In this document: positions 29,681 to 63,870 of the stretch, piece by piece
Layout of the letters: each line of letters starts with the position of its first letter
How positions within the stretch are numbered: position 1 is the first letter of the stretch
NCBI GenBank assembly: GCA_012295275.1
Contig: CM022665.1
Span: 33,728,001 to 33,792,000 of the forward strand
DNA from: Chrysomallon squamiferum
Taxonomy: Eukaryota; Animalia; Mollusca
Reading direction: 5' to 3'
Length of the DNA: 64,000 bases
Program-made: the position numbers and the translations under genes
The notes under the pieces: model-generated
Told to the model about the DNA's origin: nothing
The model's input: only the letters and a program-made list of their open reading frames with translations
Database searches by the model: none

Positions 29681-29715
<35 letters not shown>

Positions 29716-30135: not shown

Positions 30136-30182
<47 letters not shown>

Positions 30183-33729: not shown

Positions 33730-33768
<39 letters not shown>

Positions 33769-39700: not shown

Positions 39701-42700
39701 GATGTGTAAAACAAGATGTCATTAAGAAAAAAACGTCAGTGTCAAAGCTAATTGTTTCACTCTTGAGGAAACTGTAAACACAAGATTGATGATTTTCTGT
39801 TGTTTTTACATGAAACACAACTCAAGTCAAGTCCTGTTTCAAACACTGACAGCAGAGTTGCAGATTTATGTTCAGAAAAATAAAAATGTGGTCTGAATGA
39901 AAACTGAATGTAGAAATTCTGATAAATTTTTGTTTAATGTGTGGGTTTAATTTTCTATCTAAGCTGTATAGTGTAATGTTTGTTTTTATTTAATGACAAA
40001 AACTAAATTAAATGTTGATAAAATTTCAGTCTCACATGAATTTTTTTTATTTCTGTGACATACTGTCCTCGGGGAAAATAATTTCTGTAGTAGCATCTTC
40101 AAATAGTCATAAAAATGGCAAAATATATGATGAATATCATTATGGAGAACTGACTAGAAGACAAAATGCTCCAGTAAGCACACTAAGAAGGAATGATCCC
40201 ACAACCTATCATGTCTTACATTGGAACTGAACTACTAGACCACAGTGCACTCAGCAGAATAAATTTAGAAATTTGAATCCAATAAGTATATGATATGTGT
40301 GATGGATAAAAAACAAATAATAATAATATTAATAATCCTATATCTGTATCTATCTTTTATATATATATATGTGGATATAAAACATAATATACACCAGATT
40401 AAAAATAACAAAAAACAACTCATATATATTCATATTATCACTTTTCTAAAAAATTATCATTGTAAAATAACAATTTAAATCAACAATAAAAAATGCAAAA
40501 TCATTAAGAGTGTGTAATATTTGTTTTATTAATTTATAGAAATAAACAGATTTAAAAAAAAAAAAATTAAAGTTTACAGATTTATGTTATTTAAAGTAAG
40601 ATAAATTAATTTTGTTGGTGTTATTTATTTACTTTTTTTGTTTTAGTTATTTATTCATTTATTTTATTATTATTATTATATTTTTTTTTTCACTGTTTAA
40701 AGAAACTAATTAAATTACAAATAAATTCTAAAAGAAAAATTCTTTTTTCAAAAGGTCAGAAATATAAATAATAATAATAACAATATCAATAATAACAATA
40801 ATAATAACAATAATAATAATAAAGAAAAACGATGATGTGATACTAGATTTTTATCATGTGACACAATGGAATAATTACAAATTTCCATGGAGAATTATAG
40901 ACATGGTATACAATACATTCTAAATCTGTAAAACTTGGTGTATTGACAATAGTGATATAATAGAAAGGATGAAATAACTTGTCAGTCTATAGCAACCTAT
41001 ATTATTATAAATTATATCAATCCAGCTAAATTTATGGTAATAGTATTTTCATAAACACTTTCAAAACTGTTAAGCATTACCTGTTGAATATCTTCTTTTT
41101 TATTTTTTATTTTATTTATTTATTATTATTATTTATATATATGTGTGTGTGTGTATACATTATATATATATAATGTATACACACACACAAAACCAGATCA
41201 GTGGTTATTATTACTTTTTATGCATACATCTGACATTTTCAGCATATCAAATATTGATGATTGATACCTATTATTGTTATAGAAAAAGCAACCATTCTAT
41301 TACAACTATTTGAGATCTTGAAATGAGGTTTAGATATTTTTTTCAGAAATAAAAATGGAAGAAGAAAACATCAATTTTCATTTTATAGACAAAAATTTTA
41401 ATGTCTTCTCACTGATTTTGGTGCCCTTGATTGTTGTTAATTTAGCCGATCACAGGCTTATATTTTCAATGCCACCTGACCTGCCATTTTTTTCAGTATT
41501 TTTATAATTAAGAAACTGAAATACAAAACATTGTATGAGGTGGGTGATTAATTTACCTTTTAAATAAATACTCTTTGTCCAGACTCTTTTCAGTATTTAA
41601 TAAATTATTGAAATTCATTGATGTGATACTTCATTTTTACATTATTCATCTCTTTCTGACAATAGTACATTTCTAGATTTTTATTAATAAAACCAATTTA
41701 AAAAAAAAAAAATTAATTCCCAATAAAGGACTCGTATTAAACTTGTCATCTTAAATCATTTTTATTTTTATTGAATAAATTTGACATCAAGTTTCCTTCC
41801 ATGGCTTTGTGTTATACTTTTTTATATTTTTAAATGAAAAAGAAATTAAAATGACTGAGTAATTTTGGTTTAGTTGTCATGTCATGCCATGCAAAGCAGA
41901 CAGAGAATGTTGTATGGTATCATAATGACACATGGCTCTTCTATTTCTTGCTGTGATATGTTATATGGTGTGAGAGTTCCTAGAATCAATCCTCCTAATT
42001 CTCACATCAGGCTATTTGCCATCCCACCTTTTTTTTCTTTATGTCACTTCATTCACATTAGCCCACAGTTGATTTATCAAATACTGCTCATAAATACAGA
42101 GAAAAAACCCTGATTGTTAGTGATATACAATTAATCATTTTCTCTCCCAATAAATTATCATTATAAACTTATACATACATATATAAATGTAAACACATAC
42201 ACACTTGTATACATATACAATATATCTGACATCAAGTAGCCAATAATGATAAAATATATAAATATTATTCATTTATTTATTTACAGTTTTGCTACTTTAA
42301 GTAATATTAAAAAATGTATTTAAATAAAAAAAAATTTCTTCCAGTGTTCAGAAGATGGTTGCAGTGAACCGGGAAGATCGGAAAAAGGTTGAAAGTTCTC
42401 TAGAAGCTGCAGGATTTCAGACAGGAAAAGTAAGTTAAACACTAAATTAACTGCTGTTCTAGTTTTTGCTTCAAAATTTTAATTTTCTAAATTAATAAAG
42501 ACTATTATAAATTATTCTTCCAAAAATAAAGTGGCCTATGGTAAATTAACTGGCATTTTAAAAAATATTGTTCATCAGTATTACACTTTACCAATTGATA
42601 ATGATTGATAAAAACTAGAAACTGATTTGTTATGAATTATGTTTCTTTATAATAAAATAAATAATGATTTAACTAGAAGACTGATTTAGTTATTCTTAAT

Positions 42701-45700
42701 TTCCTTTAAAATTATGGTTAGCAAATGGATAGGATAAAGCTTTTAAAAAATTGGATTAATACTAATTGTTTCTTGTATCAAAGTTTTTAATCACTGTGTA
42801 AATTATTGCTTGTCTGTTTCATATATTTCTGATAACTTCAGAGCATTTCCATTTTTTATTATTATTATTTATTCATTTATGCATTATTTTATCCATTTAT
42901 TTTCATTTATTTATTTATGTTTTTAATTCATTCATTCAGCATTCATTCTTACCGAGTCAACAAAACAGGGATAAACTGGTCATCCATATGTTAATAAAAT
43001 TCAGCATCAGCTGAATCATTTTGTTATATGTTTGAATATATAACAAAATTCTTGTTTTCAGCTCTTAAATTTATTTTTAAACATCAAGACAATTTTTGGT
43101 GAAGAAATCGGTCTCCATTTTGAAGACACTGCTGTATGTTTTTTTATTTCATTTTCAGAATGAATATTATAGCTTTGAATCTGTCTAAAACATTTCAGTG
43201 TATCACGATTAATTTGATGACAACATTAAATATGTCTTTTAGGTCCTTGGAAGCTGAATATTTCCACTGAATTTCTTTATTGGCTTCAGCATGAAACTTT
43301 AAACATGGATTTCTTTTTCCTCAATTGCTTTTACATTCCATGTATAAAAGAAATTAAAGCCAAGATGTTAAGTTTATTATCTTGTTAATCAGTAAACTAT
43401 TTTTTTTCTGTTTTGTTTTAATCTTATCATGTGTCAGTGGTTTTACTTTATAAAGAACTTGCTTGTAAATAAAGAGATCTTGTACAATGCAGCTACTGGT
43501 AGCAACAGCAAACCGCAAAGCTGGTGGCTATGAAATAACTAGCTGGAATGGCACCACACAAGACCCTAGGCCAGACAAGAACTTGGTGTATTTTTTGGGG
43601 GAGATTAGTGACAAACAGTGGCATGAGACTATCCATGCAACACAATGTTAATATCATACTAAATAGCACTTAATTATACTAAACATGCATGAACAAGCAA
43701 TTATCTGATCATTACTGAAGACAACAGATGCTATTGTCTGAAGAATTACATGCACAACTACAGTTCATGGCTGGAGCACAAAGGAATTTAATGTAGATAC
43801 AACCATTATATGTTTAAATGCTTAAACACACACTGCATAATTTAAAGTTTGTTAGACATTATATCTTTCAGTTTTTATTAGTGTGTTTCACTGTTTTTAG
43901 ATATACTAGATGTGTTTCAGTGCTTGTACATAAAACGTTTTATGTGTTAGTGTTGGTATACATTATATATATGTTTCAGTATACGTAAATATACTGTATC
44001 CATTTCACTGGTTGCACATAAATTGTTTTTGTTTCAATGTTGGTACATATATTGTACTTGTGTTTTAGTATTTCTAAACAAACTGTCCATATCACTGCTT
44101 GTACATACACTGTTAATGTATTTCAATATTGATACATAGACTGCATATATGCTTAATTGGTGTGTTTTCACTGTTTAGTTTATTAATTAATTAATTTATT
44201 TATGTATTTATTCATTCACATCAGTATGCAACACTGAATCAATAAATTCAGTTTGTTTTTGTTTCTACCTGGCTGTGTGTGTTAATATTCACATCACATA
44301 TTTTGTCTGTTATTTTGTTACCTATAATGATGAAATATTCACATCACATATTTTGTCTGTTATTTTGTTACCTATGATGATGACAGAGAGAATTCTTGGC
44401 AAAACTGACATTTTTAACTTGCTTCTGTGAGGGTCATTAACAATGTGAAATACTCTCATCTTCCCAGTATTGTTTTTGGCACCAGAGTTTGAACATTATT
44501 GATCACAGAAATATTTGTCTGCCCACAATCTACTGGCTTATTGGATATTACACACGTGTATATTTAGCAAAGAAAACATTAAAAAATATGTTTTAACCTT
44601 GCCAATAATTGTTAACATACTGCTTTTTTATTATTTTTATTTTTTATTTTTTAATTAGTTTATTTATTTTTATTTTTTATTTTCTTGTACAAATTCAGCA
44701 AAGAAAACATTAAAACAAAAAGTTTTAACGTTAACAGATGTCACTGTATTAATAATAACAGTTACGGTTCATTTGGATTTTTGCTGTTATGTTCTAGTTC
44801 TCACAAGTGTGCTTAGTGTTTGTTCTTTTTCACTCATTTGTATGCTTGTACAAATTCATCAAGGAAAACATTAAAAATGTGTTATAACATTGCAACATGT
44901 TCTTTTACTGATAGTAACAATTATGTTTCCTTTGGAGTTTTGTTGCTGTATTTGTATCAATATAGGTTAAACTTGTTTATTGTTCTGTTATCCAGCTTTT
45001 ACATAATTTAACACTTTTTAAAATGTTTCTATTTGATTAACAGAGAAAGTTATGGTCCCATTTATGATATTTTATTTTCATAAGAAGATGAGCTGTGGCT
45101 TAGTGGTCAGATCTTTTATCTAAAGTGTAATACGCTATAGGATTTGTTGTATATTGGTGCATTTGTTGGATATTTCCTATTCCAGCCAGTGCTTCATCAC
45201 TGATTTATGAAGTGTCATAGGTTGTTCTTTCCTGTTAGTGGGAATGTGGATATAAAATTATAAAATATCCCTTGTTGCTTTTCATTATGAACAGTTTTCT
45301 TGAGTGATTTCTCCTATCATATTATAAGACTAATATCAAATACAGTGCTAATTAAACTAGTTCAGCTTCAGTCACCCTGTAGCTATTCACCAATTTAAGA
45401 AACACTATGGTTAACATTAAATTTTGTTGTTAAACATTCATTTTGTCATTTATTTATCACCAGTACAAGTTAGACACATCTGATGTTCTGTCCATCAGAA
45501 GGTGTTTTTTAATTTTTTTATTTGTTTTCATTTACTTAAACAAAAAACCTAAAGCACTAATTCATACACATACTAAAAAGTGTCATAAATATTAATAATT
45601 TATGATGTATACTACATTTAACTTAGTCGTTTCAGGTACAGTGTTTCTGACAATCATCTGTTCAGTTTTCAGTATTCTGAACCATTAATAACATTCATTT

Positions 45701-47783
45701 GTTCATAAGTGTGCTTTAGTCAGCCTATAAAGCTGTAAAATATCAGTTGTCGGGATCACACGTTTTTACTTGTTAAGAAGCAGAATGCAAATAAACATAC
45801 GTGTTAATTAGTTTACATAAATGGCTGGATAGAATTTGTCAGTACTTACTTTGGCATTAGGATCATATTTTACATGTATTTATTCAGTGCATTTTTACAT
45901 CTTTTGTTAAGTATAAACTTGTAAAAGTCTGGTTTGTGAAGTCTTATCCTGCAGTATGGGCAACTTCTGTATGAAGATTTTGTTCTTGGCCGAGCCTGTA
46001 AAATATTTTTAAATGGTGAGATATAAAAGTGATATAATGGTTTTTCCATTGCAAGCATCATTTGTTTCTTACACAGACAAGATGCACACAGTTTGTGAAA
46101 CTGCTTTCAACAACTCATGAATATTGAGTTAGATTGTTTTTTTATATTTATTTTCACATAATCTTACAGACTGTTTCTTTCAACCTTGACTAGTGCCCAT
46201 CAGGCATACACTTTCTGTAGCTGGGCTGCACTTATCCACTGTTGGCCATTGAAGATGTCTTTGAAAATGGTCATTACATTTCTGTTTGAAGCATCAGTGA
46301 GTTCTGAGCCTGTTAATTAGCAATCTTGACAGGAATGTTCTAGCACTGAGGAATCAACTTTGAACCCAACCTATTATTATTATTATTTTTGTTGTTGTCG
46401 TTGTTGTTATAATCAGATGGTTAATTCAGTATTGGTTTTATCCACATCCTTGTAAGAGTAGGCATAGTTGAATGATTATAAAGTTTTGCTGTTATTTGCT
46501 GTACATTAATTAATGTATCTGATTTATTCATGTTTTATGAAGTTATCATACAAAAGGAAATTTATATAATATTACAGTCATGATAGTAAAATGGTAGTAT
46601 ACATTTTTAGTTTACTTTTATGCCATTCCATATTTCTGATGCAGAAAAAAAAGAAGAAAAATGTTATAATTATTACACCTCTGTTAATTTGTTTGAACCC
46701 AAACAATTATTACAATATAAAAACAGAAGATTAATTAATTCTATATCCCTGAAATTAGAACAGTTTTAACCTTCTAAAAATATTGTCTCATATTTCAATG
46801 TTAATGGATTTTGTTTTACTGATATCTTCATGTAATCCAGTCTGGTGGAAAGAGTAAACATGGAGAGGATGTCTTGGTGTTGACTTAGCATCAGACACAT
46901 CTTAGGTTTATTTTCAGAACTGGTCAACAGCAATGCAAAACAGAAACTGGTGTCAGTTTGGAAATATATTTGAGGAATCCTTCATTTAATTGATAATTTG
47001 TGAGTTAAATGAATATGTATGAAAGAAGGTTCATAGTATCATACTATAGACATTTTGATGTTGATGTTTGGATGAATTCACAGACTGAGTGCCTGTTGGT
47101 GTGACCATTACACCAATGTCCTGTTTCCAGCTGTTCTTGTCACATACTTAATCATTCTGCTTGATCTAACAACACAGACTGTACTATAGAAACTGACATC
47201 ATTACTCAAACCTGTTCACTGTTTAAACAAAAACAAACAAAAAATGTTTAATCAGAATGAACATTAACTCGATAAATAAATAATGAATTACCATGCACTG
47301 CTTTTTGGATGGCATTGCAGTTTTAGTTAGTTATGTAAGGTTAAATACAGTTTACAAAAATGGACCCCCCTCAAGAAAAAACAAAACAGGTTAAGAAAAG
47401 GCACCGATATGTTAAAACAGCCAGTATAGCTGTTGTATATGTGATATAAGTATATCTACATACTACATGATGACTTATTTTGCCAATACACTGTTTAAGT
47501 AGGTCAGACATTGGAGGAGATAATGAAAATTTGTTTACTTTGATACTTTATTAATTGACTTCATGCTGAGATGTGGAAATTACCTACAGCAGAGCATATA
47601 ATTACTTAGAGGATCATCCTATATAGAATTATAGCTACAATGTGCAGTATCATGAGTGAAATGATTTTCACTTTAAAAAAATAAAATAAAAAACAAAAAA
47701 TCATCAGTAATCAGTCATCACAAAATATCATGGATGCATGTGTATCAGCATCTGCATGTGCTATTCTACATAATATAATCATA

Positions 47784-47829
<46 letters not shown>

Positions 47830-50800
47830 ATTCAAAGATAATGACAGATAAGAAAAATGGGTTATTGAACACTTATTGAAATATAAATAACTTCAATTTT
47901 CCAAAGGTAAAATAAAGAGGATTTGTTAATACAGAATTCATATAAAGAATTATCTGTTCATTATTATTATTAGCAGCTTCCTTGGAATTTGTACTGTTTG
48001 GATTAAACAGCTATATCTGAAATAGAGGTTATAATAAATATAGTGGTTGGAGAAGAAGAGAAAACTGGTTGAAGAAGAAGAGAAACACATTGGTTGAAGA
48101 AGAAGAGAAAACTGGTTGAAGAAGAAGAGAAAACTCATTGGTTGAAGAAGAAGAGAAAACTGGTTGAAGAAGAAGAGAAAACTCATTGGTTGAAGAAGAA
48201 GAGAAACTCATTGGTTGAAGAAGAAGAGAAAACATTGGCTGAAGAAGAAGAGAAAACATATTGGTTGAAGAAGAAGAGAAAACTGGTTGAAGAAGAAGAG
48301 AAAACTCATTGGTTGAAGAAGAAGAGAAAACTCATTGGTTGAAGAAGAAGAGAAAGCATTGGCTGAAGAAGAAGAGAAAACATATTGGTTGAAGAAGAAG
48401 AGAAAACATTGGTTGAAGAAGAAGAGAAAACTCATTGGTTGAAGAAGAAGAGAAAACTCATTGGTTGAAGAAGAAGAGAAACTCATTGGCTGAAGAAGAA
48501 GAGAAAACATTGGTTGAAGAAGAAGAGAAAACATATTGGTTGAAGAAGAAGAGAAAACTCATTGGTTGAAGAAGAAGAGAAAACTCATTGGTTGAAGAAG
48601 AAGAGAAAACGTTGGCTGAAGAAAAAGAGAAAACATAATGGTTGAAGAAGAAGAGATAATAAACACATGGATTGAACAAGCCTCTGTTTTCATAAATGTC
48701 ACTGACTTCTCACATGTTAATGCAAAAGGAAATTGATTATTTAATTTATTTTTATTTTTTCAACAGATATCTGTCTCCATTATTGCAAATTATTGACTGA
48801 CATTCACAATAAGATCAATTGTTACTGCAGACTTTGAATAATTTCTATCTAATCCTTTTGTACTTAAATTCAAGCAGATAGCAATAATTGGAAAAAGTGG
48901 TTTATATGTGCTTGTCAATGTTTAATATATAAAAAAAAGATATATATATGATGTCCAAGAATTGTAATAGTTTTCTGATGATCTGTTTTGTTGTTGTTAG
49001 GTTTTTAGTTGTGGATTTCTGAAAGGTTAAAGCTAATGTTCTAATGTTTTATTTCCCTTTCTAATTGTGTTTTTACTCAGATAAAAGCATTTACATACAC
49101 ACTTCACCATGATCTTTATCATCACTATCATCCATTATACACAAATATATTAAAAACATATAATACAATAATATTCTTGTTTTCCTTTAAGTAGCTTGTG
49201 TAACTTAAAACGATATTTCCAAAAATAGAGTCAAAAATAAATTTTAAAACATTAGTATTTTACATTCCATCTCATACAAAACCTGTTTAAACAGATATTT
49301 TATAAACATTATCAAAGCTTTCAGACATAAATCAATAAATTAGTATTTTGCTAAATGTTATTATCTCCACTTTAATAATAATAAAAAATACAATAATATT
49401 TGGAAGCAAAGTTAAAGGGCAGACATAAATAATTAATTTTATGATGCAGACTTATTTCCACTTTCAGTGGCTAAATGAGCTTCAGTTTAATTTTTACGTC
49501 TCTGAAAACAAGACATAAAAAGAGCTTTACAGAATAAAGATAAAATTTTAACAGTATTCTTCAAAGTAAGAAAAAACTGCAAAGCCAAATAAAATGGATA
49601 ATGGTTTTAGTCCATGCAAAGTTTGACTGTAAATTCCTGTTAGCTATACAAAAGAAAACAAAAAACAAATCTAAATACATAGTGCATATTTCTCAGTTCA
49701 TCAGTGGCTATTATTTAAAGTTAAATTATAAATACATTTTATTAGATTTATATATGGCTCAGTAGATGATATATTTGTGTGCTAAGCTCTGGAAACATTT
49801 ATGTATTAATTATAAATAGGTAATATAATACATGTTAGAGATACCTCACTTTATCACTAGTTTTAATTGTAAAATTAATGTAGTTCCATTTTTGTTCCAA
49901 AAGGTTTTTAAAGATGATGATTAAATGCACATAGCTTTGCATCTTTAGCCATATAGAATGTTGAGATTCTTTTATCAGAAATTATGAGCCTTAGGCTTAA
50001 AATACTTCTTGACTTCATAATTTGGTAAATGACCTTCAAATGTCCTTTTCTTGTAGACTAACTAAATGTCCTTGAATGAACCTTGTTTTCTTGTTAATAC
50101 ATATATTTAATGTCCTTGACATAAAATTCAAGGCAATATTCAGTTTGTCAGTTAGGTATTTCAAACACAGTGACTTTATATGAGAATAGATGATTGCATT
50201 ACAAATGATGAAATGATTATGTTTTATCTTGTTGATGAGATACAGTGCAAAAGTCAGTTTTTCTAAATCTGATCATCTTGAAATCTGCATATGTAGACAT
50301 AAATCATTGTGATTCTTGCATTGTTGTCCTCAGTCTTCTTAGTACAATGTCAGACTCGTAAAAGATTAAACAGTTGATTGAGATAAACAGACATGACTTT
50401 ATTTAATTTTGCCAGTAGTGAAACTTGTATGCTCTTCATTGATCACTATTGGAACCTGTTTGTAAAATAACTTTATTTTACCTTAATGTGTACTTTTATT
50501 ATCACTTATGTAAAATTTATTACATTGTAAGTGAAACTTCCAGAATATGTTTGATGTTAATGCAGATTTCTTCAACCACTACATTAATGGAAAAAAATGG
50601 TACTGTGTAGATTTGGAAAAAATGGCACCCTCTTTATTTTTTTCAGTATAGTTGCTTTGTTAAAAAAATGTAAAAGTATTTTTGAAAATACTGTTTATTC
50701 ATACAATATTGTTACATATATAGCATCACTCAGCTACTTGGTTTTGTTTACAAAGTTCAATATTATATCAGAGTTTAATATTATACATATACACATACAT

Positions 50801-53800
50801 ATACACACACATATATATACACAGATTCATACATATGTATATATATAGATGCACTAGAACGTTCTTGCCTACAGACACGTTCATAGAGATGTATCTAATT
50901 TAAATATGCATACCACAGTTAAAATATCCTCCAGAATGATTTCATTTTTACATTAGGTACATCTGTATGAATGTGTCTATATGTATGAATGTACTCATTC
51001 ATCTGTGCATGTGTGAAAGATACGTGTGTGTGTGTGTGTGTGTTTATAGGGGACATACTTATCCTTTTACTGGAATTGACCTTTGAATAGTGACCATTAT
51101 GCTACTGTATAGAGACCATTAACATTATAGAACAGAAACCAAGCAGCCTTGAGTATAGGCCAAGTCTTTTACTCATAAGACCAGTTCTGGTTGCATTCCA
51201 TGTCAGGGTTTGACTGTAGAGAACACATCAGTGATTTACCATTATTAACTATAGATGAAGGAGAAAAATTTGCCTTGCCTCCATTAACACTCTTGTCTGA
51301 TCAAGACACTTGTCATTTTGTAAAAGCAGTAAATCATGAGAAAAGAAATTTTCTTTCATTTCCCAAAACATCCATTACTGGTGTGGAAGTTAGGCAGCCA
51401 AGTACATCAGTTTCCATTAGTGGTCAGATTATTTACATTGCTCCTGACACTTTGAAAGATTTAAATACAAGAAAGAAAGAAATGTTCAGTCCACCATCAC
51501 CTCATTAATCTCTGTTAGTTGTAAGAAGGTAATGTCACAACCATATGGCATTGATGGTGTTAGTTATGTAAGAACTATCAGAGAGAGATTCTGTATTTGC
51601 CCTATGGGTGTTCAGTTACAAAAAGGTAATATAGAACCTACATGGTACAGACATACATGTTTAGAAAAATTAATCTCTTAACTATAGATTTTTAAATTCT
51701 CATTTTTTCAATCTCTTTTAAAGTAATATTAGTAGTTATAAAGCATGGATTTCCCATTTTGTCATTTTCTATAACTAGAAGGAATAGATTTATCATTTAT
51801 CAGTTATTGTTGAAAACTAAATGGAAAAATGTTTTTTACTTTATCTTATTGGATAATTTGATGTTAGTTACACAAAAATTAGCAGGTTTTGACACATACA
51901 TATTAATTATTAGGATTACTTAAAGCAGATCAAATTTCCATATACCTGTATAGCTTTGATATTACTTTGTATGGTGTGAGTTACCATGTTTCACATTTCA
52001 TATGATTTAAGAATTTCATATATTTAACAAAAATAATTAACTAAATTTAATTGATCAATATAAATAATAATAATTTCAGCAAAAACAATAGTTTATTTTT
52101 CTCTTTTATTATTTTTATTTATTTTATTTTGATAAATTTATTCATTCATTCATTCATTAATATAAGTACATTCTCAAAATGTTCCTGTTTTCAAAAACTG
52201 ATCTAAATATGTATTGTTAAATACAATAACCACTATAGATGTAATGAAAGACAATAGAAATTTAAACTCGTTAAAGTTTGTAAATGTAGTGTTTCTGTGT
52301 TAAAGTGTACACTTACAAAAATGTTAAGTGCATGATCTTGTGGTTTGTTTGTATCCTTAGTCATCTTACATTAACAACTCCAATTACACTAAGAAATGAT
52401 ACATTAAATGTGAGTCTTTGATTAGATGAATTGAGACAATAAATCTTAGCATGCTAGTGTAGAGAATAGATTAGATTCCAGTATTTTTCTTTTTTACAGT
52501 TTACTGGAGATAAATATTTTATGTATTTTTGTTTTTTCAATTTTTTTAATCTAAAAAATACTGTCATTTTAATATTATTTTATTTTATTTTGTTATATTA
52601 TCTATCTATCTATCTGTCTGTCTATATCTGTGTATATATGTGAGTGTATATTTATGTATATATATATATATACATGTGTGTGTGTGTGTGTGTGTATCAA
52701 AAATGTGTTTTGTTTTTGGAATACTACTTTTGTGATGTCATAAATAAATAGTTTTTCTGTTATCAAAGAATGTATGTAGAAATTTATAATGACAATAGAC
52801 TGCTGCTACTTTAAACTTAATATTATTCTGTCCTATCATCCAAAACCATAAATAGAACATTTATAACTGACATTAAAAAAAACAAAATAAAAATACAGAT
52901 CATTTCTGGATCTGTGTTGTGGTTTATTAAAAACAGCAGGTCATTTTATTTATTTTATTCATAACAGATCATGTTTTGAATAAGTTGTAGTTCAGTGGTA
53001 GATCTCTTTGCCAAGACATAAAGGGGTTTCTCCTTAATATGTTGATTTGGCTATTTTATATTTTATAGTTCATCAGTGACCTTTCCTAACTATGGGAAGG
53101 TGCATATACAAAATAATTTGCCTCTAACAAATAAGAATTTGCTGGATTGGTGGCTTTAAATTTCATATCTCACATAGTTGTTTATGATAAAATACACATG
53201 ATTGATATATAGTGAGAAAGTTTAATATGAAATGAAATAAACACAACCAGTAGCCACTTGGCTTTCATGGCAGGAATTTTAATCCGAAGTGGGACTGGTA
53301 AACAGGCTTATTTGTGATTCTGGCATTCCTGAATCTGGCAGTGAGATTATAACACATCTTAATTGGACACACCAGTTGTTCCATTTCTGGCAGTTTATTT
53401 CTCACCCTTACTAACTGGTGTTCCGTCACCTTAATTGATGGAACATCACCTTAATTGATGTACTTTTCTTAAACAGTATTTTGTCCATAATTTGAAAGCA
53501 CATTCAGTCATACTTTACACAAGAAATGTCCCAGAAAACACTCCACCGCAAGCTGACAAGTAGGAAGCCGTGTCCTGGGTACACATGACGTACTGCAATC
53601 CCAGCTGTACAGCTTGTGCTTGTCTTCTGGTAGTATTTCCTGTCTCCAAATTTTACTGAGATATAACATTAATTTCATGTCTCCAAACATTAATTTTCTT
53701 GCAGTCTCTATTCCAGCTCACCTCTGCTCTTCACTGCTCATTAAGGTTAATCTTGTTAAACGCCCCATCTGTTCTTCACACATCTCCTTATCCCCATGCG

Positions 53801-54940
53801 TCTAAATTGACCTTAATTGCTCACCCAGTTTTCCCATTTCTGGAAGCAGATTAGAACACCTCACCACTTACCTAATCTGGGGACTGCCAGTTTTGGGAAC
53901 ATACCGGTAAACAATGTATTTTACATAGGGTGGCCATTTCCTTATTTCCAAAAAGAAAAATATTTCTAGAAAATAATTTTTAGCCTAAATTAAACATATT
54001 GAAATATAAAAAGTTGTATAAAATATACAAAATATGCTTTGAAGTGTGTATTTGTAACATCACTATTCTGTAGTTGGTGTATGTCAGTTGGCTACAAACT
54101 CCAATGCAGCCACTGAGATGCAGGGTAATAGCAAAAAGTACCTTTTTGTCACACACCTATGTAAGGAAAATTATATAAAAACAACAGACAAATCAACTTC
54201 CATCTTGAGGTGGTACAGTCTGCAAGACAGAATGCTTAAAAGCAGAATGTCTGGCCAGCCTAATTCTACACTGTATGCTCATATAGATATGATTTTAAAT
54301 TTGGAGGAATTGTGGCAGCCAGGAGTCACAAGGGGAGAAATGTGACCTGGGACACTGAGAATCATTTTCTAGATGTTGCATGAATTTTGATTAGCATTAA
54401 AATGTGTTTGTATGATGTTAAGCATTTATTCATTCAACCACTGATCTATCACTCTAACCATCTTTATTTATTCATTTATTTATAAGGATTATTTTTTGTT
54501 CTTACATATGCCACAGATTTACAGCCATTTTTAATCTTTTGTTTCACATTAAACACAAAAAGCAGTCTCTGCAATTTATTTCTAAATCAAACTTTTGTGA
54601 GATCCCTATCTCAGTATGTTAATGTTTTGTTTTTATAGTTCCTCTCATTCACCTGCAGGAAATCTAGCTCCTGAATTTTTGGTGACATTTCATTGACTTT
54701 CTCATAAACCTGAAGTCAAATACGTCCATTTCCTGCTGATCATGTCAGTTATTTCCCTTTTCAGATACTTCTTTTTAAGAGAAGACGCTAAAATGAATAT
54801 TGACCAGTCTTTTATGTTTGATTTGTTCTTTTGAATTTTGATCCTCATTTCTGATAAAAAAAAAAATTAATGTTATTTTTCACAAGTTATTGTTGAATGT
54901 TATTTTTATAGCAGATGTTTATTACTGTCTGTGTAATGTT

Positions 54941-54973
<33 letters not shown>

Positions 54974-57900
54974 AAATATATATATATTTTTTTATTTATT
55001 TGTTTGCTTATGTTTTCATTAATTTTCATGTTTATCAATTTTTTCTCTAAATTTATTTATAAATGTCATTAATTTTATTTATTGAAATTTTTTTTTTTTA
55101 CATAATTTTAAGTTTAAATTTTGTTTGAGCAAATATTCATTAAATTATGTATTTGCTTATTTTTCATTTTAAATGCATTCTTGTAATGTTTGTTTTTTTA
55201 GTTTAATGAATTTTTAGTTTAGTTTATTTTTTAATTTTTACTTCAAATTTCAGTTTCTGGAGAAAATAAAAGTAGAAAAAAAAACCATTTAAATTATTTT
55301 TTATATTATCATTAACAAAGAATCCATTGCTTCAAATACATGCCTACAGTAAACTATGAATTGATTTTGTTTTAATTTTCCCTTGCACTGTGTGTACATT
55401 TGATATTTTGTTTTTCAGAATGGAAATATTGACCCATACAAGTTGACATTTGAGCAGTATTTCAATTTCTACCGTCATCTCACTGGAAGAACAGAAGTGG
55501 ACAAAATATTTGATGAAATGTATGTCCATTTAATTAAAACAATTAATTATTTCTCTACTGGAATTTAATGACTGACTACAAACAAGTAATTCATCTGTTC
55601 ACTCAAAGCAAAGAAAAAGAAAAGATCTTTAATTAAATTGTCATTTATTATCTTTTCTGTTTAATATGATATTAAAGATACTTATAAACGTACAGGTGGT
55701 TAAATTGTGGTTCAGCTGAAAGGGATATCTCCTGTTAATAATCACTAAAAGTATTTTTCATTCATTTAAAGGGCTCATAATATTCATAAGAAGCAAATTT
55801 CTCTTCTTAAGGTGCTGTTTTCTTTCTCTTTTTAAATGTTTTTTTGTTGTTTTCTGAATTCTTTGATTTTTTTTTAATTATTAATATTTGTATGTATATA
55901 AATTGTGTGTGTGAGTGTAATTAATAACTTAGTAACTGAATCTTGCACATTACTTAACAATAGATTTAACAAATAATTAAATTCATACTCTATTTACATA
56001 TATATATTTATATGTGTTTTGAACTGGTAAAATCAGTTACTTTTGTCTAAATTTATTAAGCCCCATTGTGAAATAAAATAATTAGAATAAGCTATATTAG
56101 GCTTTATTATTAGATTTAATCCACATGCTGACATACCCAGTACGCACTCCCTCTGTTATGCAGTAATATAATTAATGTAATTTTCAAAACTGTATCAAAG
56201 TCGAAATGTCTTCCTTTCTTAAAATTTTGGTCAGTTCCTGGATGCGGCTGGCTTACTTCCAGAACGTGCCAAAGACACTGGGTTTGACAAACAGTTGGAT
56301 TAAATGTAGTTTTCATAGAAAACAGTTTGAGACATTTAAAAACAAAATGTTGATGAATTGGGTTAATCTGCTTCTGGTTTAGACAGAATGGAATATGTTA
56401 ACTGCTGGTCTTTCTTTGTATGCTTGCAGCCCAATGGTTAGAGAACTTGTCTGACGCATTATTGATTTAAGGATCACTAGTTCATTGACGGTTTCTTGTT
56501 CTAGCTAATGCTGGTTTATTTTATACCATGGTTTATGCATTCCTGCCTATAGAATGAGGGATGTAAAAGATTCTTTGTTGCAGGTTGATATGAATAATCA
56601 TTATGTGGCAGCAGCAGGTTGTCTTTTATATCATTATTAAAAACATATTTAAAAATGTACTTGAAAAAAGAGGTATTGAGAGAAATCTTTTAAAAAATGT
56701 ATACATTATTGTTTTAATTATGTGAATACAAAAATGTTCTTCAGATTCAAAGAGTAGCTGAAATGTGCATACTGTTTCACTTATTATCCATTCAAAACAG
56801 AAATCTGTAACATTTAAAAATCAGAATGAAAACAAAATCATCATAGTCAGAATACTTGAAATTGGTTTTATCTCAATTTTTTGTTTTTAAATATTCTTGA
56901 CAAATAAATTTGACATTTAAAAATTGATTTTTCTTCTTAAATTTTAAAGAAAACAACTCCAAAATGAACACATGGAAAAAGAGACAAAAAAAAATGATTG
57001 ATTATAATTTTAGTAATTTAAGAAAAAAAAATGAATCCACTGTCATATCATTGAGTCTTGTAGACAGTGCAAAGGTTTGTATCACAAAAATTAATAATAA
57101 TAATGAACTACAGATTGATATTTGACACCACCAGAATTAAATGTAGAATGTCATAAGACTGAAATATTTCAGGATTTTAAGTGCATGGTAAATGTGCATT
57201 GTAGAAGATAAATACAAATTGATTTTAGCCTTCCAATTTTTGGACATTTTTTTTATTTTTAAAAATAGAGCCTGTGCAAAAATGTAAATAATTTGGTAAT
57301 AAATTTGTTCAGTTGAATATGTGCAAATATTAGTATTTATTTATTTATGCATTCATTCATTTTTTTCTTTTCTTTTTTTTTTTTTTTTCATTTTTTTAAT
57401 ATATATTTTTTTTAACTTATATAGATAGATACAAAATTTTATTGTTTCTTAAGCTTTTTTTTTCTGGAATCCAAATTAAGAATTCAAATTAATTTATTCT
57501 GATATTTTTTGATCGGCTGAATAAACAATTTTAAATATAAGAATTTAGAATTAATGTAATATTTGACAAATTATTAATATTTGTTGTTATATGTGGGGTT
57601 TTTGTTTGTTTTGGTTTTTCAGTTGATGTAGTTTTAGATTGTTATTTGTTGTTTTTGCTATTTTATTCTTTAAAGAACATGATAATAACAGTGTCCTCCC
57701 CTTAGATAACAAACAAAATCTTGCTACTGAAAACCTTTAATTTGCTATTTCATATATTTCTTTAATTTAATTTATTGCATTGCAGTGTATAGTATTGTTA
57801 TATATTATTTTATTTTATTCCACATTGATTTGATTACATTGGATATATCAGTTTAGTTCAGTTTAGTTCAGTTTTGTTTTGTTTTATAATTTATTTTCTT

Positions 57901-60900
57901 ATTAACAGTGGAGCAAAGAAGAAGCCATACCTAACTGTTGAACAGTTTCAAGAGTTTCTGAACAAACATCAGCGAGATCCTCGACTTAATGAGATCCTGT
58001 ACCCATTTTATACCAAGGAACAAGCTCAGGCCCTAATTGACACATATGAAACCAAGCATGGAATGGCTGCAAAAGGTTTGTTGTTAGCACATCAAAGTAT
58101 CTTTTACAGATATGTAGCTAATAGAAGTATTCTCTTTCACTTAATAACATTTTCTTAATAATGACTATTTTGCAGTTTAAAACAGGTGGTTTGTTGCATT
58201 AGTGTGTATTCTGAGAATTTTATGGTTATTATGGAATTGCAGTTTGGAGCCTACAGGCATGGAAAAACCTGATTGTTTCCTAACTGATATAATTAATAAT
58301 GATAATTAAACAAATTACTAAATTTATGTTAAAGGATTTTTAATACAGAGAATATTTTGATAAACTGTAAAAGTATGAAATGTATTCATGTATGTGTGCT
58401 TCTGTGTTTGTGTGTGCTAGTATGTGTGTATGTGTGCAAATGAGTATGTGTGTTCATGTGCACATACATTTATACATGAATATATATGTATATACACTGT
58501 TTTTAGTGAATGTATTTTCTGTTAAAATATCTTAAGGAAATTGTTTTTATAACTGTTTTTTCCTGTTTTCTTGTTTCCAGAAAAAGGTAAGATTGTGCAC
58601 CAGTGACAAAATACTATATTATAGTTTTGGCTTATATATGCATGTGAGGTTTAAACAAATATATTTTTATATTTTTGTGTGAATGTTCATTTACCATGTT
58701 GCTTTATGTATATATAACCAATTTTTTTTTTTTCTTTCTTTTTTTTTCAAATTAATTCTGTGTGTATAGAATGTTTTATTTTCATTTTATTACTGTATTT
58801 TCATAACATGCATTTATTTTAGTTGATCTATTTACAGTTATTTCAGTTTATTTAAATTTGATTGTATCCAAATTACAGATTATCACACTTGGTTAATGAT
58901 AGGATTGGTCACATCAGAAAAATATAATTCCTTTTTTATAAATAGATCTCTAAGCTAATGTGTTGTATGCACATATGCAGAGTTTAAAATATAAGAAATA
59001 TATAAAGATTAACATTACTTAACACTGATATGAAATACAGATATAAATATAGTTTTAGTGTTGTCTAATAATATATAGATTCTAAATGCAGTGTGTTTAT
59101 CTGGTGTGTAATTTAGATATACAATATAGCATTTAACTTGTGTGAGATTTACATACAAAATACAGTGATACCTCGAGTTACATGTGCTGCAGCTTACAAG
59201 TTTTCCGAGTTATGAACAGTCACTTGGTCGATTTTTTGCTTTGATTTGCGAGCCAAAATCTGAGTTACGAGTGAGCTTCAGAAACACCGCCGCTAGTTGA
59301 TGCAACGAACAACACAACATCCGCCCAGCATCCCACGACTCACTCATTTACTTCAGTTGGAAACATCTTTGTTGTGTTGTGCTTGCATTTTGTGCAATGT
59401 TTTGACAAATTTCCATGGATCCTAAGAAAGTGAGTGCAAAGGACAATGCTGAGAAGAAGAAGCAGATGATGTCCATTGAATTAAAGCATGAAATATAGAA
59501 AAACACAAATGAGGTGTGCATGTAGTCCACTTGGCTAGTCAGTACGAGCATAGTACTTCTACGATGTGTACCACACTGAAGCAGAAAGAAGGAGTCAATA
59601 AAGGCTTATCTCCAGCAAAAGGCATTAAAATAATTTCTAAGCTGTAGACCTCTGTCCATGAAAAGATGGAAAAACCCTAACCTTGTACACTTTACAAAAC
59701 CAATTTATTTCTTTACATTCTCTTTTATTTTGTTATAATACAATGTTATTCATTAATACATTTTTCTTATTTAAAGACATATGAAAAAAATTGGGGTTGC
59801 TTTTTTGGGGGGACAGAACGGATTAATGGTATTTCAATTAATTTCACTTGGGAAAATATATTTGATATATGAGCAAATTGAGTTAGAGCTCAGTCATGGA
59901 ACAAATTAAACTCGTAAGTCAAGGTACCACTGTATAGCATTTAACTGATGTGAAATTTAGATATAAAATATAGCATTTAACTGATATGAAATTTAAACAT
60001 AAAATGCAGTGTTCTAATGATACAGAATTTAGATATAAATATAGTTTAACTGTGAAGTATAGATACAAATGTAATAAATAAAGATTTATTTGATATAAAA
60101 TTCATATTAAGAAAACTTGATTAGGCCACTATTCATTGTATAATGACATCAGATTGTAATATAACAAATACTGTGATTTCAAATATAGATATAAAATATA
60201 GTGACAAGAGTCATAATTTACCAGTCATGATACATGTGCTGTAACAAGTATAACTCTTATCAACAGCTTATTTTGTTCTGTGAAGCAAGCACTAACATAG
60301 AATATTTAAAATCTGAAAATAATCTACTGTTTCAATTGCTTATTATTAACTAACTGTAAAACTGCTAAAAAAAAAATTCTCCATTCTCTCTAAAATAAGA
60401 ATTTGAATTATTTTTAATAATAGTTTTATTAATTTATTTGCTTATTAACTAAGAAAAGGTAAGCTAAAGTTTACCAACTTCATTAAAAACAAAATAAAAA
60501 ACATAAAAGCTACATTTTTAATAATTACATTAGTTATTGTTTGTTTCATTTGTTGTTTTTATTTTTGTATTTGTTTTTTTTTATGTTAAAAGAATTTAAA
60601 AAAATAATGCAATGTAGATTTTAGAAACAGTAATAATTTTATATTTTTTATTTTAAGAACGACAATATAAAATTCTGAGATAAATTAACATTATAAATAA
60701 ATTCTTTATATAAAACTGATACCAGTATGCATAGACAATTTTCAAAATGTGATTTATAATTCATTATAATGTACATCTAAACCTTTTCCAGGGAGACAAC
60801 TCCAAAACTGAAAATAATGGCATTGAAGTCTTTCAAGGAAGATAACTGATATTTTACTTGAGAAAAATAATGACCCAAAACAAAGAAAATAAAACAGATG

Positions 60901-61657
60901 ATGTTAAAACAGATAATATCAGGGAGAATTATTATTTTTGTTTTGTTTTTTTGTTTTTAAACAACTAAGAGGCAAGTAAAAGTAAGCCATAATAATAATT
61001 TCCCAAGAACTATGTTTTTTTTACCTATAATAGATAAATAAACTTTTAAGACGAAACATTAAAGTCATGCCTTGGAATTGAATTGTTTTTGGCTATGGAT
61101 ACAGTTATCGATTAGGACAGTATTTTATTGGCAAGTAAAGGGTGAAATTTACTCTCAGAAGAAAAAGAGGTATAAAGCATTTGTCATTTAATGATTTAAA
61201 AAAATCTTTCTTAACTTTTTTTATTAAAAGAACATTGTTGTAGATGGCATTTAGAAAGTTTTCTTGAGTTCTGAAATTTAAAAAATATATTTTAAATATC
61301 ATTAATTAATACACATTTATTACACAGTAAGGTATATATTTGATGTCCCAGTGAATTTTGTTAATTTGTTAGAGAGCATGATTCCATTATGTTTGATAGC
61401 AAAATTCATTGTTTCATTTTTAAATTGTTCACTTGAAATTTTTTGCTATTAGATTTTTTTTTTTTTTTCAAAGGAATGTCTTTGTTTATAGTTTAGTTCT
61501 ATGTTACTATAGTTTTACTGTTGCATTAAACTAAGTGTTTCTATAATTACATGACTTAGATGATGAAAAAACATATTAATAACACAAGACCCAGTCTAGT
61601 AAAGATGTAGATTTACTCTAATTAATAGGAACAGTGATGATAATAATAATAAAAGTA

Positions 61658-61710
<53 letters not shown>

Positions 61711-63870
61711 GTGGAGTAATGACAAATATCAGTATTATTTTAAATACATTATTCATTTTTATTTTATTTATTTATGATTTAACATCATGAAATCATGAAT
61801 AGTTTAAAAACAAATATGACGAGTAAAGTTTGTAATTATTGTTCTTTAAGTTCATTAAAATAAATAATTTCATAACTCATTATTAATTCAAATATATATA
61901 TATTCTTTCTTCTTGTAGATCATAACCATGAAAAGAATTTAAAGTTTTCAGGCTTTTTTTGTATTATTAGGTCATTTGTCTCAAGAAGGATTCCTCAAAT
62001 TTTTGATGAGTGAAGAAAATAACTTAATTCCTCCGGAAAAACTTGATCTCAGTGAAGACATGACTCAGCCATTGTCTCACTACTTCATCAACTCTTCACA
62101 TAATACATATCTCACAGGTAAAAATTCAAAACATTTCACAAATAAAAAAAATATCAATATGTCACAAACATGTCTCACTACTTCAATCAAATCTTCATTA
62201 ACATATCTCACAGGTTAAAAATATCAGTATGTCACAAATGTTTTTTACCACTTCATCAACTCTTCATATAACATCTCACTGATAAAAAAGAAATACACAG
62301 ATGTGTTTCCTGCTTCATGAATTTTTCATATAACAGGTATCTCACAGATAAAAAAATAATATCAACTTTTTACAAACATTTCAATGGTTAACAAAAAACA
62401 CTTATATATCAGAAACATGTTTTTATTTTGTCAGCACCTACAATATGTGTACTGTCAGACGTTAATTAAACTATTATTTTAAATGTTTGAACAGTGTCTT
62501 ACCTATAACAGGACATCAGCAGAATTGTAATGTTAGGTATTAATTAAACTATGTACTGCCTGTGACAGGACATCAGTAGAGGTATATTGTCAGGTGTTAA
62601 ATAAATAATGTGTTACCTGTGACAGGACATCAGCTGACAGGCAGGTCATCAGTGGAGGTGTATTGTCAGGTGTTACTCAGTGGCTGTCGCTGTGTTGAAC
62701 TTGACTGTTGGGATGGGAAAGGTGCTGATGAAGAACCAATCATAACACATGGTTTTACAATGTGCACTGAAATCCCATTTAAAGTAAGTCAAATTAAAAT
62801 TTATGGATTTAATTTCCACAGTTAAATTCTTCAAAGGCAAATTATTTATTTTTTAAAATATGCTTCATAATGAGCACTGAAAATATTTTAAAAGTATATT
62901 GTTGTTAGAAGATTCTGTTAAATTATTATTATTGTTGTAATTTATCTTTAACTGTACATGTGTACTGTAACAGAACTATGGCCCACATCATTCTGTCTAA
63001 AGTTTCTTTCTTACAACAGTTAACTTGTTATAAAACTTAAGTGCTACAAATCATATCTGCTCAGTATGATTTATTAGTTTGTATATATTTTTGGACTGTT
63101 TCTTTTAATTCAAATCAATTTCTTTGACATTTTAAATTATGTATGCATGTTATTATTGTACAAGACTTGTATAATGTTTTAAATATTAATATATGTGGTG
63201 TTCTAAAATATTTAATAGTTTTAAATTGTGTTGTTTTAGGATGTAATAGAAGCCATTGCACTCTGTGCCTTCAAAACATCAGAATACCCGCTAATTTTGT
63301 CCTTCGAAAACCATTGCTCGTAAGTATCTTCTTTTGTTTTTAATATTTAACCACTGCTATTGCCAGAGCACTTTCAAATTTATCATCATGTTAGATGCTG
63401 CTATACATTTATTTTATAGAGGAAAATAAATCATAGGACAGCATATATTAAAACAAAAGCTTATGAATTAGATGGTCAACACTGAAGAAAAGAAAATATA
63501 AATACATATACAAATACAAAAATATAAACACAGACACATCTAAAACATAAAAACACAAGAATATACATCTATATAAAATATAGTTACTTAAAATTAATTA
63601 CAGACATTCAGATTAATTATTTGTACCCTCACATTCACATCTTTCTACTTAGATCATCAATTACAGAGGTGATGGTGTGGCTTTTACATTATCAGTAATT
63701 AATTATTAAATTAATCCACTTCTACCATTACATTTAATTGATTTTATCAAAATTCTTTGGTAAGTAACATCTTGTTTCTTTTCAGACCAAGGCAACAGGC
63801 AAAGATGGCCAACTACTGCAAAGAAATATTAGGAGATATGTTGTTGACCTCCACACTAGAAGATCATCCA
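16603..63870 (+). CDS. PLCB: Phosphoinositide phospholipase C beta (Plc21C/PLCB1-3-like), partial spliced CDS: join(16603..16680,22528..22596,37557..37697,38363..38496,42345..42429,55419..55519,57909..58075,61971..62117,62626..62783,63240..63319,63786..63870)
   Basis: The 11 exons all have AG/GT boundaries and compatible phases and join into 415 stop-free codons. Family motifs: [65 protein letters not shown] and [11 protein letters not shown] fit the Plc21C/PLCB1-3 group better than norpA/PLCB4 (from recalled sequences). Incomplete at both ends. Confidence 0.97.
18005..18872. repeat. Decayed tandem array (units up to about 120 bp) followed by a ~22-bp array (aaaatgaagatagccatgttat) at 18750-18872
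   Basis: Repeated aaaacagaatttgttaatctg..ttatgaaatgat and aattatccataaagat blocks; about 6 copies of aaaatgaagatagc. Confidence 0.7.
20927..21780. mobile_element. CpG-rich composite non-autonomous insertion: pogo/Tc2-like left end (TA|ccgtatatacttgtgtataagtcga) plus a hAT-Charlie-like end fragment near 21683
   Basis: TA|CCGTA start with internal inverted motif tataagtcga/tcgacttata; abrupt rise in CpG; gggcaacctttttcgagaagcgggccatatgac resembles hAT MITE ends (recalled). No matching right TIR found. Confidence 0.55.
21781..22290. repeat. Long imperfect inverted repeat (foldback or MITE-like), arms about 190 bp, spacer about 120 bp
   Basis: ggtaactctgtatcaatgattagctatt and aagaaatttttcattttcatttacttcaggaactgttataat (21792-21905) pair with attataacagttcctgaagtaaaggaaaatgaaaaatttctt and aatagctaattgttgatacagagttacc (22153-22274). 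Confidence 0.85.
22528..22596 (+). CDS. PLCB: PLC-beta exon (69 nt, phase 0-0), PH domain: [23 protein letters not shown]
   Basis: cttattatag| acceptor, AAG|gtaatg donor; LDxxxIRDARxGKxAKxPK motif. Confidence 0.95.
23851..23863. promoter_or_regulatory. Candidate RFX X-box (GTTACCTGGCAAC)
   Basis: Exact fit to GTNRCC(N0-3)RGYAAC; motif match only, no functional evidence. Confidence 0.25.
24890..25085 (+). mobile_element. SINE-like copy, 3' portion (same family)
   Basis: ctggtctatgaaagaccttggcatgtattgtcctgtctctaggaagatgc..gagtagcccatgacatggcagcagcagatttcatctctcatt aligns by eye with the 45.1 and 56.4 kb copies. Confidence 0.55.
31716..32070. repeat. 53-bp minisatellite, about 6 near-identical copies plus a decayed seventh
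   Basis: Unit cattcaccagttatctatacagttctgagattgtcaggtagagctctacatag starts at 31717, 31770, 31823, 31876, 31929 and 31982. Confidence 0.97.
37557..37697 (+). CDS. PLCB: PLC-beta exon (141 nt, phase 0-0), PH domain: [47 protein letters not shown]
   Basis: tttcttacag| acceptor, AAG|gtaaaa donor; GxDxVN..NF motif of the PLCB PH domain. Confidence 0.95.
37877..39344. repeat. Dispersed direct repeat of about 210 bp on either side of exon 38363-38496 (copy A 37877-38086; copy B 38934-39112 plus 39301-39344)
   Basis: aaaaagcttgcttgtttatt..cccagttgtatagttaatgtaatgagatgtatgattta..tgttgacattaaaaaa recurs at an offset of 1057 bp; copy B has about 190 bp of extra internal sequence. Confidence 0.92.
38363..38496 (+). 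CDS. PLCB: PLC-beta exon (134 nt, phase 0-2), end of PH into EF-hand: [44 protein letters not shown](N)
   Basis: attttcacag| acceptor, AA|gtaagt donor; NLLAQN..FLEK.YT.L..GKIPIKN motif. Confidence 0.95.
40100..40248 (-). mobile_element. SINE-like copy on the minus strand, 5' portion
   Basis: Reverse complement gives ctgtggtctagtagt..gtgggatcattcc..ttctagtcag, matching the head of the 45.1 kb copy. Confidence 0.4.
41144..41189. repeat. 46-bp perfect palindrome centred on (TA)n
   Basis: tgtgtgtgtgtatacattatatatatataatgtatacacacacaca. Confidence 0.93.
42345..42429 (+). CDS. PLCB: PLC-beta exon (85 nt, phase 2-0), EF-hand: (N)[28 protein letters not shown]
   Basis: tttcttccag| acceptor, AAA|gtaagt donor; DRKxVExxLEA motif; phases match both neighbours. 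Confidence 0.94.
44284..44382. repeat. Recent 50-bp tandem duplication
   Basis: aatattcacatcacatattttgtctgttattttgttacctat(a)atgatga occurs twice head-to-tail. Confidence 0.9.
45089..45340 (+). mobile_element. Old tRNA-derived SINE-like copy
   Basis: A-box-like gtggcttagtggtcaga, then tatttcctattccagccagtgc and tcctgttagtgggaatgtggatataaaa..atcccttgttgct; these blocks recur, degenerate, at other sites in the window. Confidence 0.6.
48043..48657. repeat. Purine-rich minisatellite, 22-27 bp variable unit (tggttgaagaagaagagaaaa[ctcat]), more than 20 copies
   Basis: Directly visible; it produces the low-complexity ORFs at 47950-48679. Confidence 0.97.
52983..53175 (+). mobile_element. SINE-like copy, highly decayed
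   Basis: A-box-like gtagttcagtggtaga; ttggctatttt; tttcctaactatgggaaggtgcatatacaaa. Confidence 0.45.
55419..55519 (+). CDS. PLCB: PLC-beta exon (101 nt, phase 0-2), EF-hand: [33 protein letters not shown](I)
   Basis: tgtttttcag| acceptor, AT|gtatgt donor; RxEVDxIF motif. Confidence 0.94.
56425..56636 (+). mobile_element. Old tRNA-derived SINE-like copy (same family)
   Basis: A-box-like gcagcccaatggttagag; tttcttgttctagctaatgc; tcctgcctatagaatgagggatgtaaaagattctttgttgc; gtggcagcagcaggtt shared with the 24.9 kb copy. Confidence 0.6.
57909..58075 (+). CDS. PLCB: PLC-beta exon (167 nt, phase 2-1), EF-hand: (I)[55 protein letters not shown]
   Basis: ttattaacag| acceptor, AAG|gtttgt donor; diagnostic [12 protein letters not shown]. 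Confidence 0.97.
58581..58586 (+). CDS. Candidate 6-nt cassette microexon (AAAAAG, phase 1-1) adding Glu-Lys
   Basis: Long pyrimidine tract tgttttttcctgttttcttgtttccag, then AAAAAG, then gtaaga. Length is a multiple of 3 and it adds no stop. TGCATG at 58639-58644. No transcript evidence. Confidence 0.55.
59163..59932 (+). mobile_element. Tigger/pogo (Tc1-mariner superfamily) internally deleted element, 770 bp, TA target duplication
   Basis: TIRs cagtgatacctcgagttac and (reverse complement) cagtggtaccttgacttac; TA at 59161-62 and 59933-34; disrupted transposase N-terminus inside. Confidence 0.92.
59415..59675 (+). pseudogene. Disrupted Tigger transposase N-terminus (HTH-psq/CENP-B-type DNA-binding region)
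   Basis: [27 protein letters not shown] / [26 protein letters not shown] / [20 protein letters not shown], with frameshifts and a stop; no DDE domain present. Confidence 0.85.
61971..62117 (+). CDS. PLCB: PLC-beta exon (147 nt, phase 1-1), last EF-hand and start of X box: (G)[48 protein letters not shown]
   Basis: gtattattag| acceptor, CAG|gtaaaa donor; contains the first catalytic His and the Ca-binding Asn (SSHNTY). Confidence 0.97.
62072..62370 (+). repeat. Degenerate tandem copies of the 3' end of exon 61971-62117 plus its donor site
   Basis: Exonic tgtctcactacttcatcaactcttcacataatacatatctcacag|gtaaaaa is echoed at about 62171, 62246 and 62310. Confidence 0.88.
62495..62675 (+). repeat. 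57-bp-period tandem copies of the acceptor and 5' end of exon 62626-62783
   Basis: acag|gacatcag with the AG ending at 62511, 62568 and 62625; tagaggtatattgtcaggtgtta (62576) mirrors exonic tggaggtgtattgtcaggtgtta. Confidence 0.88.
62626..62783 (+). CDS. PLCB: PLC-beta exon (158 nt, phase 1-0), X box: (G)[52 protein letters not shown]
   Basis: cctgtgacag| acceptor, AAA|gtaagt donor; Ca-binding E/D of CVELD and second catalytic His (ITHG) are intact. Confidence 0.97.
63240..63319 (+). CDS. PLCB: PLC-beta exon (80 nt, phase 0-2), X box: [26 protein letters not shown](S)
   Basis: ttgttttag| acceptor, TC|gtaagt donor; [17 protein letters not shown] motif. Confidence 0.97.
63786..63870 (+). CDS. 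PLCB: PLC-beta exon (85 nt, phase 2-0), X box: (S)[28 protein letters not shown]
   Basis: tttcttttcag| acceptor, CCA|gtaaga donor; QQAKMAxYCxxIxGDxLL motif. Confidence 0.96.

Follow-up and report, generated by a model that had tools for sequence, protein, structure and literature searches.

A six-nucleotide candidate microexon in a snail PLC-beta gene lies at a junction where other molluscs and annelids carry short optional inserts

The window, a stretch of 64,000 nt (64 kb) of contig CM022665.1 of the snail Chrysomallon squamiferum, carries on its forward strand the part of a PLC-beta gene that encodes the PH domain, the EF hands and the start of the X domain. The span given for this host gene is that of the exons found within the window, and some of the exon ends from the scan are off by 1-3 nt. 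The exon directly upstream of the intron discussed here is 95% identical to its counterpart in Gigantopelta aegis. In a FastTree tree (midpoint root, no clade test, with Gigantopelta in place of the window's own protein) the mollusc proteins form one group, the annelids are its neighbours, and Drosophila Plc21C and vertebrate PLCB1 lie further out; the outgroup rows are presumably PLCB4-like. Judged by its PH-EF-X exons and by the grouping with mollusc orthologues near Plc21C and PLCB1, the host gene encodes a gastropod PLC-beta that belongs to the Plc21C/PLCB1-3 type. The features that matter for the following are:

16606..63870, forward strand: PLC-beta host gene, 11 coding exons (PH, EF, start of the X domain), located by tblastn with the Gigantopelta aegis protein (P0001)
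57909..58075, forward strand: constitutive exon of 167 nt on the upstream side, running from the EF3 loop to EF4 and corresponding to human PLCb3 G234-R288
about 58390..58460, forward strand: TG-rich tract 5' of the microexon, a putative element read from the sequence
58548..58553, forward strand: possible branch site TATAAC, an imperfect match to CUAAY, proposed from the sequence, in a 42-nt AG-free zone
58554..58580, forward strand: polypyrimidine tract and CAG acceptor, 18/20 pyrimidines, no UGC
58581..58586, forward strand: candidate microexon AAAAAG, 6 nt, phase 1, adding Glu-Lys between Lys (the PLCb3 R288 equivalent) and Gly
58587..58592, forward strand: donor GTAAGA (AAG/GTAAGA), shared letter for letter with the clam-like microexon described below
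58639..58644, forward strand: TGCATG, an Rbfox motif by PMC4317164, starting 53 nt past the microexon
61971..62117, forward strand: constitutive exon of 147 nt on the downstream side, coding for the EF4 strand and helix and running into the X domain, containing the PLCb3 E294 equivalent

A sequence-only reading of the window had proposed the exon from a strong acceptor, AAAAAG and a near-consensus donor, and on re-reading the sequence all three are present at 58554-58592. Its further description also holds, that is, a phase-1 intron between exons of 167 and 147 nt, a gain of Glu-Lys without frameshift or stop, a TGCATG about 53 nt downstream and a TG-rich tract upstream. AAAAAG has the size of an in-frame microexon (3-27 nt, a multiple of three, no stop). 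Unspliced contigs that cross the site in three of four RNA runs from this species show zero differences from the window, so the site is no assembly error.

Some other peculiarities of the gene were seen in passing. Just after exon 61971-62117, degenerate copies of the end of this exon lie at 62130-62350, and at 62490-62634 there is a 57-nt tandem repeat before exon 62626 that resembles the start of that exon; both are partial exon-end duplications. An intronic low-complexity, tandem-like repeat with long Glu/Lys-rich open frames occupies 47950-48760. Isoforms of mollusc PLC-beta (P0132, P0134, P0144, P0155, P0184, P0189, P0225, P0242) have other short optional inserts of 7-27 aa at further PH/EF junctions, and a scan of the window introns 16681-22527, 22597-37556 and 42430-55418 gave no strong candidates matching these.

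The strength claimed for the acceptor is borne out by the whole window. With the scan set at the candidate's own values (18/20 pyrimidines, an AG-free tract, donor 6/7), which were chosen after the candidate had been seen, it is the sole sense-strand match in the 64 kb, the antisense strand has none, and among 1000 dinucleotide-shuffled versions of the intron no site of this strength turns up. At looser thresholds (15/20, 5/7) a match with a length divisible by three arises in 38/1000 shuffles, and the gene span then gives two antisense matches against one in sense. The canonical splice sites at 58581-58586 exceed chance, and as the thresholds were set post hoc, conservation is the better test than the strength of the sites. 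TGCATG was counted 19 times in sense and 20 times in antisense, and 1.8% of the positions in the gene span have a TGCATG starting within the next 60 nt. Three other sites in the same intron were considered and dropped as unsupported: 60454-60458 (5 nt, frameshifting) and about 60970-60981 (6 or 12 nt possible), each with an AACTAAG acceptor and a GTAAGC donor, and 59427 (3 nt, a weak tract inside a repeat). The intronic repeat at 59200-59940, which many divergent contigs cover deeply in each of the four RNA runs, is likely a transcribed transposon-derived repeat.

Five runs of C. squamiferum contain this stretch, and four of them, from one study, are recorded as RNA; their sequences are contigs, which have no tissue labels and drop rare forms. 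The junction search proposed together with the exon succeeded for the skipped form, as the joint 58075 to 61971 is present in the contigs of all four runs, and failed for the included form, since no joint with AAAAAG was found in these contigs. This shows that the exon at 58581-58586 is not constitutive, and it is no proof of disuse, because rare forms are lost from contigs and the tissues are unlabelled. Contigs of three runs end near 58600, which might be taken for a trace of splicing, but as other parts of the intron are covered alike they are taken for unspliced RNA or DNA with patchy coverage.

Orthologous proteins point to use of the site. The comparison drew on 641 proteins, 530 of which cover both anchors of the Lys/Gly junction. 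Of these, 36, which are redundant isoforms from 12 mollusc and annelid taxa, have an insert of 2-7 residues placed exactly between the Lys and the Gly (a count that excludes spacings above 10 residues, i.e. read-through ORFs, duplications and aberrant models, and nine rows whose +1 to +4 residues do not follow the K[..]G pattern). An exact K-EK-G, the form predicted here and suggested as a search target by the sequence-only reading, is present in P0406, a caenogastropod Logan contig of 7068 nt with an uninterrupted ORF of 1418 aa that groups with Littorina (nearest at 67%), and an abalone protein, XP_046551116.1 (P0122), has K-EE-G. EK and EE were each found in one sequence in the whole search, and 106 shorter proteins gave no further example of either. 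The inserts of bivalves are GDVEP or GDIEP in scallops, EEE in C. virginica, EQSSLDE in Ruditapes and Mercenaria and DGTLEE in Dreissena, and those of annelids are DPQVPK in Capitella and DPEVPK in Ridgeia. Both forms are annotated in Dreissena and C. virginica as well as in Mizuhopecten (8/11 with the insert), Argopecten (5/7), Pecten (1/2), Ruditapes (8/10) and Mercenaria (5/6), these being numbers of annotated isoforms and not inclusion levels. Among the isoforms listed, Gigantopelta, Patella, Physella, Biomphalaria and Bradybaena and, of the bivalves, Magallana, Ostrea, Saccostrea, Mytilus and Mya are free of an insert, and an incomplete sample of arthropod, vertebrate and cnidarian proteins has no junction insert and an unchanged loop length, large clusters being represented by 15 listed members. 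Representatives at 50% identity (84 rows with both anchors) added no further junction insert of 2-7 aa, and in two annelid-branch proteins the loop is of a different, +4 kind. One protein of the set, P0572, is labelled norpA (Drosophila busckii) in its source, yet by its EF-hand region it is a Plc21C, which makes a mislabel likely. RefSeq and GenBank models of PLC-beta (XP_021345449.1, XP_060592648.1, XP_046551116.1, CAPTEDRAFT_170497) place their inserts at the same Lys/Gly junction and in phase 1; they are automatic, however, and differ from the window exon in length and sequence, and the Gigantopelta model lacks the insert.

Genomic DNA of relatives was found in 15 metagenome loci with the orthologous region, of which L014 and L015 were left out. 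Two clam-like loci (L004, L005), whose upstream exon is nearest to Dreissena, contain an unannotated 15-nt phase-1 exon (DEAGE) in the same intron, 632 nt from its start, with a perfect branch site TGACTAAC, two UGC, an AAG acceptor, the donor AAG/GTAAGA and TGCATG at +9. The microexons of L004 and L005 differ by one synonymous base, which is weak evidence because the loci are about 96% alike overall. The clam-like microexon (L004 1922-1936, L005 1416-1430) has an internal CAG that would give a 6-nt form, and the 15-nt and 6-nt versions may both exist. Two annelid-like loci (L001, L002), nearest to Capitella, have an unannotated 18-nt exon (DPSIPE) that resembles the inserts of Capitella and Ridgeia; its distance from the upstream exon differs between the two loci, there is one synonymous difference, and it opens the sole sizeable conserved island (about 170 nt, 73%) of otherwise unalignable introns. 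No TGCATG lies within the examined part of the L001/L002 introns. The coral-like loci L007-L010, L012 and L013 have no convincing microexon, L011 has a weak 12-nt candidate, and L003 is spliced or intronless. The proposed comparison of orthologous introns thus recovered a microexon in both the clam-like and the annelid-like pair, and the accompanying TGCATG only in the former. Distant relatives in which the exon has a counterpart are the caenogastropod and the abalone (P0406, P0122) and the organisms behind L001/L002 and L004/L005, and as the clam-like and annelid-like loci match, the microexon slot is common to molluscs and annelids. Since molluscs and annelids have tiny optional exons at the same spot, it is very likely, on these comparisons of sequence, that 58581-58586 is an optional in-frame microexon of the snail PLC-beta, and its inclusion in this species is highly probable.

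As to how inclusion may be regulated, the window exon resembles two known classes to different degrees. RBFOX-promoted microexons, which Li et al. 2015 (PMC4317164) describe in human and mouse, show inclusion in brain, heart and muscle, and like the window exon they are very short, keep the frame and have TGCATG in the downstream intron, where it stands at +53 in the window and at +9 in L004/L005. Unlike them, the exon belongs to molluscs and annelids, and TGCATG is found in two of the three lineages with genomic DNA. The eMIC code of neural microexons (Srrm3/4, Srrm234), as given by Torres-Mendez et al. 2022 (PMC8797185), consists of UGC near a weak 3' splice site and a strong CUAAY branch site. 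A long AG-free zone is shared with this class, but the window exon has a strong acceptor, no UGC and an imperfect branch site and thus does not follow this code, which the clam-like orthologue has in full (a CUAAC branch site, a weak acceptor with UGC nearby, a UCUC-like tract). In the supplement table of that paper, as far as it was available, Plc21C is absent and the sole PLC-beta entry is a 36-nt exon of mouse Plcb4. This hints at a regulatory code that differs by lineage, Rbfox-type in the snail and eMIC plus Rbfox in the clam. Tissue control of the snail exon by Rbfox has slightly better than even chances.

The upstream exon aligns gap-free to human PLCb3 from G234, and its last Lys is therefore the equivalent of R288 and the Glu of the downstream exon that of E294. 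By homology, the insert would follow the R288 equivalent and lie inside the EF-hand G-beta-gamma site, 28 residues downstream of the equivalent of Asn260, which we take to be a G-alpha-q contact of PLCb3 (reportedly described as such by Waldo in 2010). G-beta-gamma rather than G-alpha-q is for these reasons the likely target, and G-alpha-q, which the sequence-only reading had named, is probably the wrong partner. According to Falzone and MacKinnon 2023 (PMC10194004), this second G-beta-gamma interface comprises 21 residues, is mostly electrostatic and includes K236-Y240, N282, Q284, F285, R288, M293 and E294 (SI Table S2), the side chain of R288 having no density in the liposome model, and according to PMC13626650, cells in which the EF-hand site has the substitution R185E lose nearly all of the G-beta-gamma signal driven by receptors. 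On the human PLCb3-G-beta-gamma complex of these two sources (PDB 8EMW) the window insert maps between R288 and M293/E294. The snail protein is identical to PLCb3 at 6/21 interface residues, among them all five named specific contacts, and three more are conservative (three positions were counted by hand), and the vertebrate sequences fetched are insert-free at this position, unlike the mollusc and annelid forms. An AlphaFold model of the included form of Dreissena keeps the EF fold (with Foldseek, a TM of about 0.72 to both PLCb3 and PLC21) and places the insert in the loop between helix 287-290 and EF4 strand 300-302, with a pLDDT of 71 against 91-94 beside it. Cuttlefish PLC21 (PDB 3QR0, 3QR1), also a mollusc PLC-beta, has a loop here that is fixed at two residues longer, yet it is divergent from the window protein (about 50% identity) and the loop is basic, very much so at residues 287-296. 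The EF4 loop of PLC21 might be a fixed or included microexon; its length speaks for tolerance of extra residues and says nothing on origin.

The preferred explanation, to which about even chances are given as a whole, is an optional microexon that is included in some tissues, predicted to be nerve and/or muscle, likely by way of Rbfox, and whose Glu-Lys lengthens the EF4 loop and likely weakens stimulation by G-beta-gamma. Skipping would be the default, and inclusion would take place where Rbfox is active (nerve, muscle) and bound to the downstream TGCATG. The added Glu-Lys would lengthen the EF4 loop, which contributes to the second docking site for G-beta-gamma in human PLCb3, the extra residues would push apart or repel G-beta-gamma contacts, and potentiation by G-beta-gamma would fall with activation by G-alpha-q left intact. 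That the insert alters G-beta-gamma binding may be so or not with equal probability, and the direction, a weaker response, is guessed from the mostly acidic character of the inserts (8/10 distinct sequences are net acidic, EK being net neutral) beside basic contact residues.

It might be objected that nothing is spliced in here and that the site arose by chance, is a decayed exon or serves recursive (ratchet) splicing through AAG/GT, and indeed the RNA contigs show skipping only and AG/GTAAGA after a strong tract resembles a ratchet point; but the site predicts exactly the residues of P0406, neither the shuffles nor the antisense strand produced its like, the intron has just 3.9 kb and the first AG is the CAG immediately after the tract, which makes this very improbable.

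If the exon is real and regulated, its insert could still sit in a tolerant surface loop with little functional effect, only the splice sites being kept. Length (2-7 aa) and sequence of the inserts vary widely across lineages, the cuttlefish loop is longer by two residues, the two annelid-branch proteins have their different +4 loop, and the Dreissena model accommodates its insert. Against this, EK is identical in distant snails, the annelid inserts are conserved (DPxxPx) with synonymous changes only, the slot is retained in two phyla, and the loop keeps its length in the arthropods, vertebrates and cnidarians sampled, and an insert without much effect appears unlikely. Instead of the response to G-beta-gamma, the insert could also affect coupling to G-alpha-q, GAP activity or the basal activity. 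It belongs to the same EF3-EF4 module as Asn260, EF4 runs straight into the X domain, and G-beta-gamma control of the mollusc enzyme is unproven, no report of G-beta-gamma activation of a mollusc PLC-beta having been found in the literature searched; the distance of 28 residues from the Asn260 equivalent and the listed G-beta-gamma contacts that flank the insert on both sides nevertheless render such a role rather unlikely.

Regulated microexons as such are already known, and relatives of this exon sit unremarked in automatic gene models. In the literature searched, the inserts of the bivalve, abalone and annelid models are nowhere described as microexons, and the exon, its spread and its position at the G-beta-gamma site are undescribed, though microexon supplements (e.g. 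Torres-Mendez 2019) may list it. From the sequence comparisons it is very likely that the exon is conserved and real, and the mechanism proposed for it is specific and testable. More tentatively, and with rather less than even chances, the slot may predate the split of molluscs and annelids, with a fixed position at which 2-7 mostly acidic residues turn over, and serve as a tissue switch on the EF-hand G-beta-gamma site that sets Gq-Gi crosstalk in nerve or muscle. Most gastropod annotations miss the exon, and it offers a concrete lophotrochozoan case for microexon evolution, for which most data are from vertebrates and flies. The EF-hand site was found in 2023 and its role is under study with engineered mutants. 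If the preferred explanation is true, the exon would be a natural test of this recently found site, with natural isoform pairs ready for assay, and the persistence of an optional exon there in two phyla would be evidence from nature that this surface is both in use and under regulation.
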